In this document: piece after piece, positions 51,434-58,815 of the stretch
How the letters are laid out: every line of letters begins with the position of its first letter
Numbering within the stretch: position 1 is the first letter of the stretch
Source: Eledone cirrhosa
Taxonomy: Eukaryota
Direction: 5' to 3'
Assembly (NCBI GenBank): GCA_964016885.1
Contig: OZ024741.1
Location: 108,810,001 to 108,874,000 of the forward strand
Length of the DNA stretch: 64,000 nucleotides
Program-made: the position numbers and the translations under genes
Notes under the pieces: model-generated
Seen by the model: only the letters and a program-made list of their open reading frames with translations
Databases searched by the model: none
What the model was told of the DNA's origin: nothing

Positions 51434-51903
51434 TCGATACAATCCATACGTACATATGTATATATGTGTGTGTGCGTGTGTGTATATATATATATATATA
51501 TAAAGGTTATCATATACATAAAATTAAATTAAAGATATATATATGTTGCAACTGTTCACTTTTACTGTTCACATAATATCTGATTGATTCTATAGACATG
51601 ATTTATGATATATATATATATATATATGTGTGTGTATATGTATATATGTGTGTGTGTATATATATATATGTGTACGTATGCATAGTTACATTTATATATC
51701 TACTATGCTAGAGCGAGTAATACAATTCTAATCTTATTTATATATATATTTGTGTTTGTTTGTGTGTGTGTGTATATATATATATATATTAATAAGAGGA
51801 ATTCCAACTTTGACTGATTTACTCGTTTTATTTACAATCCTTTAAAATTTATAATGGTATTATAATGAAATAGTATGATAGAATATTAAATTCTAAGTGT
51901 TAA

Positions 51904-51944
51904 TTGAACAAGTACTTTCATGCTTTCGCAATCTTCAGGTTCAT
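51904..51944 (-). ncRNA. PLE pseudo-LTR hammerhead ribozyme
   Basis: tgaac-CTGAAGA-ttgc(gaaa)gcat-GAAA-gtac-TT-gttca. Confidence 0.8.
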
Positions 51945-52331
51945 AATATGTGGTGACAGTCAAGTTTGCAATTTTCAACTGTAATAAGATGGGTAAATTT
52001 CCTACCTTTTATACATTTTATACAGGGAAAAGTGGCTCCAGAATGCTAAGCCCTGCAAACTGTATTTCGACCAATCAGTGTGTAGTTTCACTTAATTACT
52101 AAAGCTGATTGGTTTAAGCGTCACGGCTGGTTGAGCATGTCTAACGACCAATAATTAATCATATCCAAAGCATCAATTGTTTTGCTATTTTTAGAAATGA
52201 TGAAAATAGCATTTTCTTTTAATCATCACCATCAACATCACTTTTATTATTATTATTATTATTATTATTGTTGTTGTTGTTGTTAGTGGTCGTAGTCATG
52301 GTGGTAGTAGAAGTAATACACCTAAGCGTTA

Positions 52332-54164
52332 TTATTGTTCATTTAAATTGGGTTTGAATTTTTCAATAAAATTCTTTTCTTTGATTTTTCTCTTGATTTC
52401 ACTTGGGCTGTGTAATTTGTAGAATGGGAATATTATAAATATTCCCTGACCACATGTTGCTAGATGGTTACTTAGGGGTATCTGACGGACATTTGGGTCT
52501 CTGATTTGTTGACGGTGTACCCGTGCACGTTCCAATAGTGCATTTCCAGTTTGACCGACATATAGTTCTTCACAATTCGGGCATTTAATGCAGTAAATTA
52601 GATTTCTGCTTTTGCAGTTTATATTTGCATTTGGGAATATTTTTCCAGTTTTTGTTTTCATATATTGACCGGCGTGTATGGGTTGACATGTGCCGCATCG
52701 ACTATCATTGCATTTAGATACAGTGAATGATTGGTCTTTGTTGTTAAGGTCAAACTTTACTTTTGTTAGTAATTGCTTCAAATTTTTTGACTGTCTTTTA
52801 CTAAGAGTCAAAGATCGATCTGTGATTAAGCCTTTTAATTCATTACTTTGAGCAATGATCGGTAGGTTTGCTTTGGCAGTGTTGAAGATATTCTGGTGAC
52901 ATGTGTTGTGTGTCATTATAAATGGTAAGACCAGTTCTTGGTTTCTTCTTCCTTGGGTTGTCCTAAGTTGTTGTATAGGTATTTTTATAGCCCGCTGTAT
53001 GCCATTTTCTATAAGTAGAGATGGGTATTTTTGTTTGAGCAAAAATTCTCTTAGTTCTGTTAGGCGTTTGTACCTGGTATTCGTATCTTCTACAATGGTA
53101 CAAATTCTTCTGGCTAGGCAGTATGGGATGTTGCGTTTTGTATGAGGTGGATGGCACAACTTAAAATTCAGATATTGATGGGTGTCTGTGTGTTTATAAT
53201 ATATATCCGTGGTAATGGTGGTGTCGTTTTTGATTATCATTATATCTAGAAATGGTAATTTGGTCCTACTCATCTCTTTTGTGAATTGGAGAGATTGGTG
53301 TAGGTTATTCAGGAGGATATTGAACTCATCCAGAGTATCTAAAGATTCTGTCCAGATGATGAAACAGTCGTCAAGGTATCTCTTCCAAGATTTTTCAATG
53401 TACTTTCTAAAGTCAGTACTATATTTTTCCTCTATTTCTTGGTAGAGTTGTTGTTCTAAGTATCCCATTACAGAGTTCGCGTAAACGGGAGCAAACTTCG
53501 TTCCCATCACTGTGCCTCTAATTTGGATGTAATTCTTTCCATTGAAGAAGAAAGTGTTGTTTTCCAGAATAAGTTTAACTGCGTCTAATATAAATGGCGC
53601 TGTGAATCTGATGGGAATCACTTCTCTATGTTTTTCCACCCAGTATGTAACCGCCTTTATTCGTAAATCATGTGTAATGTTGGTGTAAAGGCTTACCACA
53701 TCAAAACTGAGTAGAAGTGAATTTGTTTCCGTGGTTTTGGGAAGATGGGACAGGAAGTCGATATCATCCCGGATGAAACTGGGTATGTGAATACATAGTG
53801 GTTTCAAAATAATGTCAACAAAATTGCTTAGACGGTGAGTGGGGCATGTTGGACCAGCTATAATAGGTCTAAGTTTTAAGTCTTTTGGGTGTAATAATTT
53901 AATGTACTCACTGTTTTGTTCTCTTACTGCCAGTTGTATTTCTTTTGACTTATGAACTTTCGGTAGGCCATACAGGTTGCTGGGTTTCGGCTCAAAATTG
54001 GTGGTGTAGTCTCTTTCCTTATCAGTAAGTGAGTTGTGGTATTTTGAAGCCAAGTTTTTGATCTTCTTCATGATGTTGTGGTCTATATTTGACGGTATTT
54101 CATGATAGAATGTTGTGTCTTTCAGTTGTTCCTCAACCAAATCCTTGTAGTATTCAGTATCCAT
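52332..54164 (-). CDS. Penelope-like (Neptune-type) reverse transcriptase + Cys-rich linker + GIY-YIG endonuclease, 610 aa, N-terminally truncated
   Basis: LYGLPKVHK, LRPII, FDVVSLYTNI, GTVMGT, RYLDD, LPFLD, CNDSRCGTC and NLIYCIKCPNC..LYVGQT motifs. Confidence 0.92.
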   Translation of the reverse strand: MDTEYYKDLVEEQLKDTTFYHEIPSNIDHNIMKKIKNLASKYHNSLTDKERDYTTNFEPKPSNLYGLPKVHKSKEIQLAVREQNSEYIKLLHPKDLKLRPIIAGPTCPTHRLSNFVDIILKPLCIHIPSFIRDDIDFLSHLPKTTETNSLLLSFDVVSLYTNITHDLRIKAVTYWVEKHREVIPIRFTAPFILDAVKLILENNTFFFNGKNYIQIRGTVMGTKFAPVYANSVMGYLEQQLYQEIEEKYSTDFRKYIEKSWKRYLDDCFIIWTESLDTLDEFNILLNNLHQSLQFTKEMSRTKLPFLDIMIIKNDTTITTDIYYKHTDTHQYLNFKLCHPPHTKRNIPYCLARRICTIVEDTNTRYKRLTELREFLLKQKYPSLLIENGIQRAIKIPIQQLRTTQGRRNQELVLPFIMTHNTCHQNIFNTAKANLPIIAQSNELKGLITDRSLTLSKRQSKNLKQLLTKVKFDLNNKDQSFTVSKCNDSRCGTCQPIHAGQYMKTKTGKIFPNANINCKSRNLIYCIKCPNCEELYVGQTGNALLERARVHRQQIRDPNVRQIPLSNHLATCGQGIFIIFPFYKLHSPSEIKRKIKEKNFIEKFKPNLNEQ

Positions 54165-54250
54165 TATAACAACTGCACCCCTTTATCTGCTTGTTTAATT
54201 ATTATTGTTTTATCAGTTGAACATTGCAAACTTGACTGTCACCACATATT

Positions 54251-54291
54251 ATGAACCTGAAGATTGGGAAAGCATGAAAGTACTTGTTCAA
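54251..54291 (+). ncRNA. PLE pseudo-LTR hammerhead ribozyme, with a C>G change weakening stem II
   Basis: CTGAAGA-ttgg(gaaa)gcat-GAAA-gtac-TT-gttca. Confidence 0.65.
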
Positions 54292-54496
54292 TTAACACTT
54301 AGAATTTAATATTCTTTCATACTATTTCATTATAATACCATTATAAATTTTAAAGGATTGTAAATAAAACGAGTAAATCAGACAAAGTTGGAATTCCTCT
54401 TATTAATATAATCTTCTATACACAATCATACACACCCGTGTATATTTACCTATCTATATATATATATATATATATTCCTATTGTGTATATGCCAAC

Positions 54497-55846
54497 ATGT
54501 CTGGAAAACAACAAATGAAATCAACAGAATCAGAAAGAATTCTAAAGGAGATATCATTGAAATTATCAACACTTACCACGATGATGGACACACAATCCTC
54601 TATTTTAAAGGAAATAGAAAAACAATCTACAGACGGAAAACTTATAACTGAACATATAAACTCTGAAATTAAGAATTTAGCTGAAATTATACCAACAGTT
54701 ATCAAAGATACAAGAGAAAGCCTACCACAACCCCCTTGGATGTCAGAAATAAACGAAAGAAATTTGGAAAACAAAACACATCGAATAAAAAAAGAAATGT
54801 GGAAGACATGGAAAAAATTCCTTAACATAAGAAAACAAAATTTCTGGAAAGCATACAAATGCGAAAAATATGTCGAAACACATTCGAAATGGCTCTCTCT
54901 AACGGCACCCATACTCCCTCGCAAATACCTAATTACAGAAATTGCAGGAGAACCAGAAGAAGAAACAAAACTCCGATGGGAACTTACATTGACAAAATTC
55001 AGGACCGACATCTCCATTTCTGAATGTAAACAATCCCGCTACAAAGCCAAATATGAAGCTATTGATGACCAAATTGAAGTTGAAATTTCAAAGCTAACGA
55101 CTGGTATTATAGCTGAACAACTACGAGAACTATGGATCAGAGATATCTCAAAAGAAGAAAACAAATCAAGAAAGGTATGGCAGCAGAATCAATTATTTCT
55201 CGACGAATATGCTGCAAATTACGGTAAAGATTCTGGAACCCTGAGAAAAAGCATTAAAAGTGGACAATCTCGTCAACACAACATACGCCAGAACACGTGC
55301 CAACACAAACACTCACCTTACCTTGAATCAAAGAAGAACTACGGTAATAACTCTTCGCTTTTTCTACAAAAACACCCTATCGCACACAACATGAACAAAA
55401 AGCACAAACACGATAGATATTCCTTTGACCAGACCATGAGAAGTAGTAAAACCAGGAGATCATTTTCAAGATCTCAACAGAGACTACCAACAAGGAATGT
55501 GGAAACAAAACGTAGAATAACCTGATCACTCTCAAGTTCTCAACAGAGATTGCCCACAAGAAACTGGACGAAAAAACGATCTAAACCTGAAAGCAAACCT
55601 AGGTCATTTCCCCAGATTGTCAAAAATAGTGCTAACAGGAAGAAAAATAATATACAGAATACCAAAAATAGGACAAAATACATAACGAAACCAAATATAA
55701 TATCACGACCAAAAGTTCATCAAGCGAACACCAACAGGAATATAAATCCTGAACAGAGAAAAATCCATTTTTTAACGTCAGGACAACAAAAACCGGAAAA
55801 AGAAAAACTCCAGGAGGAAACATACCCAAAACAACTGTACACGTAG
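54497..55846 (+). pseudogene. PLE ORF1: helical/coiled-coil-like N-terminus and basic tail, one in-frame TGA at 55523
   Basis: ORFs 54497-55525 and 55550-55846 are in the same frame. The TGA aligns with the Arg of an internal RSxSxSQQRLPTRN repeat. The coiled-coil nature is inferred from composition. Confidence 0.7.
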
Positions 55847-58060
55847 ATCCTAAAATAATTAATTTATCTAAAAGAGATCTTGACAATGATGAAATGCAAA
55901 TTCTGTCAAAAGGACTGAAATTCACACCGGCTCCAACAGTCAACCACCAAGAACTGAAGGAAGATACCCAAGAATTCTGTCGAAAATTACGTCTTGTAGA
56001 ATTCTTCGCTGATAAAAGTAATGAGAGTGATGAATCACTAGTAAAGAATAAATCAAATTTCACTCCGCCAAAAGGAAGAAATATCTATCTCGACCAATAC
56101 ATTGACATCCTGTCTAAATATCCTCTTAGACATAATACTAATGTTAGGCCAAACATTAACGAATCAGAAATGTCTGCACTTAAACGTATACAAAATGATA
56201 AAACAATAATAATTAAACAAGCAGATAAAGGGGGTGCAGTTGTTATAATGGATACTGAATACTACAAGGATTTGGTTGATGAACAACTGAAAGACACAAC
56301 ATTCTATCATGAAATACCGTCAAATATAGACCACAACATCATGAAGTAGATCAACAAATTGGCTTCAAAATACCACAACTCACTTACTGATAAGGAAAGA
56401 GACTACACCACCAATTTTGAGCCGAAACCCAGCAACCTGTATGGCCTACCGAAAGTTCATAAGTCAAAAGAAATACAACTGGCAGTAAGAGAACAAAACA
56501 GTGAGTACATTAAATTATTACACCCAAAAGACTTAAAACTTAGACCTATTATAGCTGGTCCAACATGCCCCACTCACCGTCTAAGCAATTTTGTTGACAT
56601 TATTTTGAAACCACTATGTATTCACATACCCAGTTTCATCCGGGATGATATCGACTTCCTGTCCCATCTTCCCAAAAACACGGAAACGAATTCACTTCTA
56701 CTCAGTTTTGATGTGGTAAGCCTTTACACCAACATTACACATGATTTGCGAATAAAGGCGGTTAAATACTGGGTGGAAAAACATAGAAAAGTGATTCCCA
56801 TCAGATTCACAGCGCCATTTATATTAGACGCAGTTAAACTTATTCTGGAAAACAACACTTTCTTCTTCAATGGAAAGAATTACATCCAAATTAGAGGCAC
56901 AGAGATGGGAACGAAGTTTGCTCCCGTTTACGCGAACTCTGTAATGGGATACTTAGAACAACAACTCTACCAAGAAATAGAGGAAAAATATCGTACTGAC
57001 TTTAGAAAGTACATTGAAAAATCTTGGAAGAGATACCTTGACGACTGTTTCATCATCTGGACAGAATCTCTAGATACTCTGGATGAGTTCAATATCCTCC
57101 TGAATAACCTACACCAATCTCTCCAATTCACAAAAGAGATGAGTAGGACCAAATTACCATTCCTAGATATAATGATAATCAAAAACGACACCACCATTAC
57201 CACGGATATATATTATAAACACACAGACACCCATCAATATCTGAATTTTAAGTCGTGCCATCCACCTCATACAAAACGCAACATCCCATACTGCCTAGCC
57301 AGAAGAATTTGTACCATTGTAGAAGATACGAATACCAGGTACAAACGCCTAACAGAACTAAGAGAATTTTTGCTCAAACAAAAATACCCATCTCTCAGCG
57401 GGCTATAAAAATACCTATACAACAACTTAGGACAACCCAAGGAAGAAGAAACCAAGAACTGGTCTTACCATTTATAATGACACACAACCCATGTCACCAG
57501 AATATCTTCAACACTGCCAAAACAAACCTACCGATCATTGCTCAAAGTAATGAATTAAAAGGCTTAATCACAGATCGATCTTTGACTCTTAGTAAAAGAC
57601 AGCCAAAAAATTTGAAGCAATTACTAACAAAAGCAAATTTGACCTTAACAACAAAGACCAATCATTCACTGTATCTAAATGCAATGATAGTCGATGCGGC
57701 ACATGTCAACCCATACACGCCGGTCAATATATGAAAACAAAAACTGGAAAAATATTCCCAAATGCAAATATGAACTGCAAAAGCAGAAATCTAATTTACT
57801 GCATTAAATGCCCGAATTGTGAAGAACTATATGTCGGTCAAACTGGAAATGCACTATCGGAACGTGCACGGGTACACCGTCAACAAATCAGAGACCCAAA
57901 TGTCCGTCAGATACCCCTAAGTAACCATCTAGCAACATGTGGTCAGGGAATATTTATAATATTCCCATTCTACAAATTACACAGCCCAAGTGAAATCAAG
58001 AGAAAAATCAAAGAAAAGAATTTTATTGAAAAATTCAAACCCAAGCTAAATGAACAATAA
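55753..58060 (+). pseudogene. PLE RT-GIY-YIG reading frame, disrupted by a TAG at 56347, a 19-nt deletion near 57396 and a 1-nt deletion near 57637
   Basis: IINLS, LSKGLKFTP and IKQADKGGAVV followed by sequence near-identical to the 610-aa inverted copy. Confidence 0.9.
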
Positions 58061-58134
58061 TAACGCTTAGGGGTATTACTTCTACTACCACTATGACTAC
58101 GACCACTAACAACAACAACAACAACAACAACAAC

Positions 58135-58174
<40 letters not shown>

Positions 58175-58471
58175 GTGATGTTGATGGTGATGATTAATAG
58201 AAAATGCTATTTTCATCATTTCTAAAAATAGCAAAACAATTGATGCTTTGGATATGATTAATTATTGGTCGTTAGACATGCTCAACCAGCCGTGACGCTT
58301 AAACCAATCAGCTTTAGTAATTCAGTGAAACTACACACTGATTGGTCGAAATACCGTTTGCAGGGCTTAGAATTCTGGAGCCACTTTTCCCTGTATAAAA
58401 TGTATAAAAGGTAGGAAATTTACCCATCTTATTACAGTTGAAAATTGCAAACTTGACTGTCACCACATATT

Positions 58472-58512
58472 ATGAACCTGAAGATTGCGAAAGCATGAAA
58501 GTACTTGTTCAA
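58472..58512 (+). ncRNA. PLE pseudo-LTR hammerhead ribozyme
   Basis: tgaac-CTGAAGA-ttgc(gaaa)gcat-GAAA-gtac-TT-gttca. Palindromic AGTACT stem III. Confidence 0.8.
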
Positions 58513-58693
58513 TTAACACTTAGAATTTAATATTCTATCATACTATTTCATTATAATACCATTATAAATTTTAAAGGATTGTAAATAAAACGAGTAAATC
58601 AGACAAAGTTGGAATTCCTCTTATTAATATAATCTTCTATACACAATCATACACACCCGTGTATATTTACCTATCTATCTATCTATCTATCTA

Positions 58694-58815
<122 letters not shown>

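Follow-up and report, generated by a model that had tools for sequence, protein, structure and literature searches.

The 64,000-nucleotide stretch of the Eledone cirrhosa genome analysed here (the window) carries a Penelope-like element (PLE) whose reverse transcriptase (RT) and GIY-YIG endonuclease (EN) lie in a frame that overlaps, at −1, the end of a separate upstream frame, ORF1. The question raised by this locus is how the enzyme is translated. The initial annotation proposed a gag-pol-like ribosomal frameshift. Having compared the junction across copies, families and distant relatives, we consider −1 ribosomal frameshifting at U_UUU_UUA the probable route to RT-EN (probability about 0.85).

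The element and its close copies

Direct-repeat comparison placed the element at 54214–58694 on the forward strand, where two 260-nt pseudo-LTRs flank ORF1 and RT-EN. The 5′ pseudo-LTR (54214–54473) is 97% identical to the 3′ one (58435–58694), which ends in a (TA)n tract. A pattern scan identified a minimal hammerhead-ribozyme motif with a palindromic helix III at 54251–54292, with a helix II mismatch in the window copy, and again at 58472–58513; a motif of this type has been described (PMC4209133). The pattern, a sequence motif for a putative ribozyme, matched three pseudo-LTRs of the window and loci L116 and L128, and in its strict form missed the divergent families F2–F4 described below. 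An Rfam search listed no hammerhead, only microsatellite-driven microRNA noise. An inverted, 5′-truncated copy lies on the reverse strand at 51716–54184, with a 616-codon open RT-EN frame and without the junction.

ORF1 spans 449 codons, from the ATG at 54497 to a TAG stop at 55844–55846. Its codons CAT TTT TTA (55766–55774, His-Phe-Leu) contain the slippery heptamer T_TTT_TTA at 55768–55774, in the correct phase and 25 codons before the stop. ORF2 (55768–58060), which encodes the RT, a Cys linker and the GIY-YIG domain, is in the −1 frame. That frame opens only after a TGA at 55750–55752, five codons before the heptamer, and has no ATG until 55894, downstream of KIINLS (55852–55869), which alignment shows to be the first conserved motif of the RT protein. 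The initial annotation had read this layout correctly, base for base at the heptamer, and its overlap of about 90 nt measures 94 nt. Pfam matches were obtained for RVT_1 (56644–57087, E 1.7e-7) and the GIY-YIG endonuclease (57791–58051, E 5.5e-7). A C-x4-C-x2-C motif, read by eye from the translation (57680–57706), is likened to the Neptune/Nematis linker of PMC8557442.

The window copy itself is dead and can no longer frameshift into the RT. ORF1 is interrupted by a TGA at 55523–55525, and ORF2 is broken by a TAG at 56347 and by losses of 19 nt near 57396 and 1 nt near 57640, in line with the decay already remarked on. The protein length of 449 residues is therefore taken from other copies; ORF2 is open across 770 codons in locus L116. 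The ORF1 tail of the window copy also holds a 66-nt tandem duplication (55458–55578), giving two SRSQQRLPTRN-type units that are 75% identical.

In an intact copy, most ribosomes would stop 25 codons past the heptamer and release the 449-aa ORF1 protein, while a small share would slip back one base and produce an ORF1-RT-EN fusion of roughly 1,190 aa. We infer this release, and the ratio of ORF1 to fusion, from the layout, phase and conservation of the site, all of which are directly observed. In the third frame, 11 of 14 sites, including that of the window (55770–55775), meet a stop at the heptamer itself (TTT TAG or TTT TAA), so that a −2 slip would end at once.

A DNA search of the same genome gave 1,025 candidates, of which 40 were scored and the 30 closest fetched; these define family F1. 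The frame break is common to all 30, as are the ORF1 stop 25 codons after the heptamer and the closure of the RT frame 5 codons before it, and the heptamer is kept in 29. ORF1 is intact, at 448–449 aa, in 8 of the 30, so the proposed length of about 450 aa holds for these copies, though not for the broken one in the window. In a second F1 set, picked via an ORF1 homolog, 26 of 30 loci span the junction and 23 of the 26 have the heptamer; pooling both sets and removing four duplicates gives 48 of 52. As the copies are 90–99% alike, the break is ancestral to the family, although these counts provide no evidence of selection. A private indel, which alignment of the copies could have exposed, is ruled out by the family-wide break, and an assembly error is unlikely, given that contigs of two public runs show no indel at the T run. 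Three single, decayed genomic copies have ORF1 and RT in one frame, two of them (L072 and L040) through one added A and the third (L076) through a junction deletion.

Conservation of the heptamer beyond one family

Distant-homolog searches of the same genome uncovered three additional families, F2, F3 and F4, and a further search returned only families already known. All three have CAT TTT TTA in the ORF1 phase, with the RT at −1. Identity is 29–36% in ORF1 of these three, 29–48% in the ORF1 domain and 42–57% in the RT, and the flanks are unrelated. In F2, the heptamer is present in 17 of 20 loci and in phase in 15. The RT frame closes 5, 20, 10 and 7 codons before the heptamer in F1, F2, F3 and F4, respectively, and its first ATG falls at codon 43, 166, 60 and 156. 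In F2 and F4 this ATG lies beyond the GxKF and DK motifs, which are general to PLEs (supplement of PMC8557442), so an ATG start would remove both; in F1 it would drop only the KIIN motif. A C-terminal GIY-YIG domain with CCHH is present in all four families, as is, by eye, the C-x4-C-x2-C linker between RT and EN. One F3 copy (L111) has an in-frame poly(A) expansion that encodes a lysine run inside the RT.

An RT-only scan returned 80 metagenome loci and one genome contig. Of these 81 loci, 23 were left out for want of the RT start or of the 150 nt before it, leaving 58 for analysis. Seventeen are close to F1–F4, nine placed by the RT tree and eight by RT identity or shared sequence, and 13 of the 17, representing about 11 distinct families, have T_TTT_TT[AG] in the right phase. 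Among the other 41, two have an in-phase T6[AG], and in many the RT frame is open for 200–317 codons upstream, the canonical single-ORF arrangement. As a chance control, no in-phase T6[AG] occurred in 2005 upstream codons of 14 elements. The RT tree, built from 32 rows by a quick method with midpoint rooting and no named reference, unites F1–F4 and nine loci in a single branch (support 100), and the heptamer is present in 12 of its 13 rows. The exception is locus L148, where an ORF1 homolog and the −1 layout occur without the heptamer; L163, L182 and L188 also lack it and look like decayed copies of heptamer-bearing families. In L129 and L130 the heptamer ends in G, a form said in PMC3561942 not to be used in eukaryotes. 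Viral contigs gave no match in the RT scan, and scanning viral and metagenome contigs at DNA level with ORF1 was likewise without result.

The same signal is visible at protein level. We examined 151 ORF1 proteins, leaving out 59 with tails under 80 residues, and found Phe-Leu (FL) 11–42 residues before the stop in 72 of the remaining 92. The window just upstream contains FL in 3 of 92, and shuffles gave a mean of 2.9 and a maximum of 11. Various residues precede FL (H, S, R, P, N, Y, D, G, L), but at this position K, E, Q, M and W, whose codons never end in T and which make up 22% of tail letters, are absent throughout (nominal P 1.6e-8); since the homologs are related, P values overstate their independence. 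At the 14 DNA-level sites the Phe codon is always TTT. Of the 20 homologs without FL, three have FF, and several appear truncated or shifted. The homologs that carry a name are from Mytilus or from the assembly of a Solemya symbiont, the latter probably host DNA. The heptamer, whose conservation the initial annotation had proposed to check, is thus kept in phase across deep divergence, from F2–F4 through metagenome loci to distant proteins.

The scan also returned sites outside this branch. Four loci on a separate RT branch (support 99) carry slippery sites at L156:2459–2465, L169:2245–2251, L159:1243–1249 and L177:2436–2442. They are of three types (U6A, A6C and U_UUA_AAC), each followed by a stop after 2–4 codons, and the upstream ORFs, of 416–814 codons, end in an SGNH-esterase-like domain. 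The esterase assignment is weak, with a GDSL match below the cut-off (E 3.5e-5) in L177 only; in the same locus (L177:1–2442) a NADAR domain (E 6e-17) lies N-terminal to the esterase-like domain. This arrangement suggests frameshifting with a second type of ORF1. Long upstream ORFs overlap the RT in a −1 layout with no canonical heptamer at L173:1079–2968 and L184:2–1561, and L173 has G_GAT_TTT near the stop of its upstream ORF. PLE sequences under bacterial labels (L205, a MAG, and P0154, a gill symbiont assembly) are probably host DNA.

The ORF1 protein and other routes to the RT

A search with the ORF1 domain gave at least 392 clusters at 50% identity, with full-length proteins mostly of 340–470 aa. 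No single-ORF, fused form was found among the best 150 homologs, the longest of which has 706 aa, and homolog searches returned no longer fused relatives, which is weak evidence. The AlphaFold2 model of an intact copy (P0001) shows five long helices across residues 11–241, corresponding to 54527–55219 of the window, with 185 residues at pLDDT ≥ 90. The tail is predicted to be disordered and is basic (49 K/R versus 10 D/E).

We found no Pfam family for ORF1 and none shared among 50 members, no CCHC knuckle in 155 ORF1 proteins, and no Foldseek match at E ≤ 0.001. Fold comparison returned generic helical bundles only (best Z 9.2, rmsd 5.4, 146 aligned), and the best ESM Atlas score, 0.83, serves as a lead only. 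The earlier description of ORF1 as gag-like therefore stands by position only; structure prediction gave a helical domain and a disordered remainder with nothing specifically Gag. As modelled, ORF1 would not be a Gag but a helical domain followed by a basic disordered tail. LINE ORF1 proteins are oligomeric RNA-binding coats, and by analogy ORF1 is likely an oligomeric RNA-coating protein.

Could the RT be reached without a ribosomal frameshift? The T run might belong to a 3′ splice acceptor, TTTTTTAG, in which case removal of an intron covering most of ORF1 would link the RT frame to an ATG further upstream. PLE introns kept in DNA copies are in print, TTTTTTAG is present at 10 of 14 DNA-level sites, and the residue after FL has a G-starting codon in 50 of 72 proteins; F1 also offers a CAG 5 nt further on, with three more YAG in the overlap. 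Yet no AG follows the T run at four of the 14 sites (F1, L129, L130, L143), such an acceptor is impossible in about 22 of 72 proteins, and splicing would not need the fixed ORF1 phase through the T run that all 14 sites and 72 of the 92 proteins show. We regard it as quite improbable.

Separate production of the RT, by reinitiation, leaky scanning or a non-AUG start, with the heptamer kept for another reason such as a His-Phe-Leu motif, is highly improbable. It would suit F1, where the ATG at 55894 precedes GLKFTP, and IHFL is indeed kept in close relatives, but the position of the first ATG is not conserved (codon 156–175 in F2, F4 and L143). Moreover, the combination of a variable residue before FL, restricted to T-ending codons, with a constant TTT points to a nucleotide signal rather than a peptide motif. 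Least credible of all is polymerase slippage, in which one U added in the T6 run of some transcripts would give an in-frame ORF1-RT message. A homopolymer run without an RNA stimulator invites this reading, and single-base gains in nearby A runs do make in-frame copies (L072 and L040); the run is only six long, though, and an added U would work in any codon phase, whereas the phase is fixed.

Stimulation of the proposed frameshifting and relation to known elements

If −1 frameshifting is the route, what stimulates it? The absence of a strong downstream hairpin, already remarked on for the window, was borne out there (z +0.7 to −0.2 in three downstream windows), and in F1–F4 no fold better than shuffles lies at a useful position downstream of the heptamer. 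Across 19 sites, 16 fold with z above −2.2, and a simple H-type pseudoknot scan scored no better than shuffles. Two loci differ. In L175 (213–245) a 9-bp GC-rich hairpin starts 6 nt downstream of the heptamer (z −4.6), with the zero-frame stop directly after it, at codon 12, and in L154 (556–590) a weaker GC-rich hairpin follows the heptamer, then a zero-frame stop at codon 12. Since no RNA stimulator is general to these sites, frameshifting is likely inefficient, at about 1% or less; the HIV heptamer U6A alone gives about 0.1% (PMC3561942). The rate may indeed be low, or else a stimulator may escape folding scans.

The distance from site to stop shows one regularity, with a floor of 11 codons (0 of 75 proteins closer) and a value of exactly 12 in 18 of 72. 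Stops at 12 recur in numerous deep branches of the ORF1 tree, and also in F3, which has no hairpin; at DNA level, they arise from different −1-frame dipeptides. Codons 3–11 contain 0 stops in 126, versus 79 in 1,400 further into the RT; the third frame also has only 3 in 126, which makes the DNA-level contrast alone modest. With a stop at 12, the Leu codon lies 11 codons from the stop, about one ribosome footprint. This spacing is close to the collision period of 30 nt reported in yeast (PMC12852954) and to the 8–10 codons over which, in E. coli reporters, a stop-stalled ribosome raises −1 frameshifting (PMC6815119).

It is conceivable, if unlikely, that termination at the ORF1 stop keeps the following ribosome waiting on U_UUU_UUA, and that frameshifting in a large animal branch of EN-bearing PLEs is thereby structure-free. 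Such a queue, if real, would explain both the 11-codon floor and the peak at 12, and the spacing hints at it for some of the clade, F1 not included. Against it, the F1 stop lies at 25 codons, and the F2 and F4 stop is simply a TAA hidden in K-I-I. A hairpin could also produce the floor, as could a basic tail that is short, and the effect of a nearby stop in SARS-CoV-2 is to allow the pseudoknot to refold (PMC8168617). Slow-terminating Lys or Arg precedes the stop in 20 of 75 proteins, versus a background of about 19%, and thus gives no support for an aid to queuing. The slippery site about one footprint before a stop, with no RNA structure, resembles the stimulator of PMC6815119, but that work used synthetic bacterial reporters, and the interval here is 10–11 codons for some members of the clade and about 24 for F1.

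Judged by its motifs, the element is a Neptune-like, two-ORF, endonuclease-bearing Penelope retrotransposon. It shares with the Neptune clade of PMC8557442 the order of RT, Cys linker (CX2-5CxxC) and C-terminal GIY-YIG with CCHH, and with the Neptune rows in that paper's supplement the ADKG and AMG..FAP.YAN motifs; Neptune itself is described there as paraphyletic. The pseudo-LTRs, the inverted truncated copy and the hammerhead motif are likewise those of EN-bearing PLEs. These have been described as single-ORF (PMC8557442, PMC6431247), the latter source setting them against two-ORF EN-minus elements, whereas two frames are found here in all 30 copies and across four families. Unlike described Neptune elements, the RT-EN lacks its own start and depends on a 400–570-aa ORF1, and the present branch has an insert of roughly 25 residues before LRPII that is absent from the three Neptune rows compared. 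In a Neptune element from killifish, ORF1 is short and does not overlap (PMC12602865).

The Fig. 1 legend of PMC8557442, and of its preprint, states that PLE ORF1 can be frameshift-separated with a pseudoknot, the clades being unnamed in the text; a coiled-coil-type ORF1 before the RT, joined to it by what is here a probable frameshift, is the shared feature. The esterase-ORF1 PLEs (PMC3905857, whose main text does not use the word "frameshift") also place ORF1 before a PLE RT, and L156, L159, L169 and L177 resemble that type; they differ from the present branch in their ORF1, their separate RT branch and a stop only 2–4 codons after the site. HIV-1 gag-pol (PMC3561942) has the same UUUUUUA in the same phase, with a structural-protein ORF first and an enzyme ORF at −1, but most members here lack its stem-loop, ORF1 has no zinc knuckle or capsid match, and there is no protease, integrase or LTR.

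As for precedent, coiled-coil ORF1/RT frameshifts have reportedly been seen in the endonuclease-less Athena/Terminon PLEs, from which the present elements differ by their GIY-YIG endonuclease and by having no pseudoknot that we could find. Published PLEs already include a frameshifted ORF1, apparently in members that lack an endonuclease. In the literature searched, which includes the available text of PMC3846280, PMC5408684, PMC5009743, PMC5718144 and PMC13282606, we found no description of this slippery site or this ORF1; an earlier notice of it in Neptune, in older PLE papers or in Repbase, is possible.

On this comparative evidence, the heptamer is real and conserved across deep divergence, most probably as a recoding signal, in a Neptune-like branch of EN-bearing PLEs with two ORFs. 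The single-ORF picture is overturned for a sizeable branch of these elements, which are the retroelements closest to telomerase; RT proteins of the branch have been annotated without their real start, and an ORF1 family of 400–450 aa and at least 392 clusters has no Pfam entry. By frameshifting, an element of non-LTR type would make coat and enzyme in proportions like those of a retrovirus. The dozens of naturally occurring U6A sites with no evident RNA stimulator and a fixed minimum stop distance also form a test set for termination queues as a driver of −1 frameshifting in animals. If the queue reading were true, collision-programmed frameshifting would have a natural example in eukaryotes, one that supplies a hitherto undescribed family of helical ORF1 proteins.
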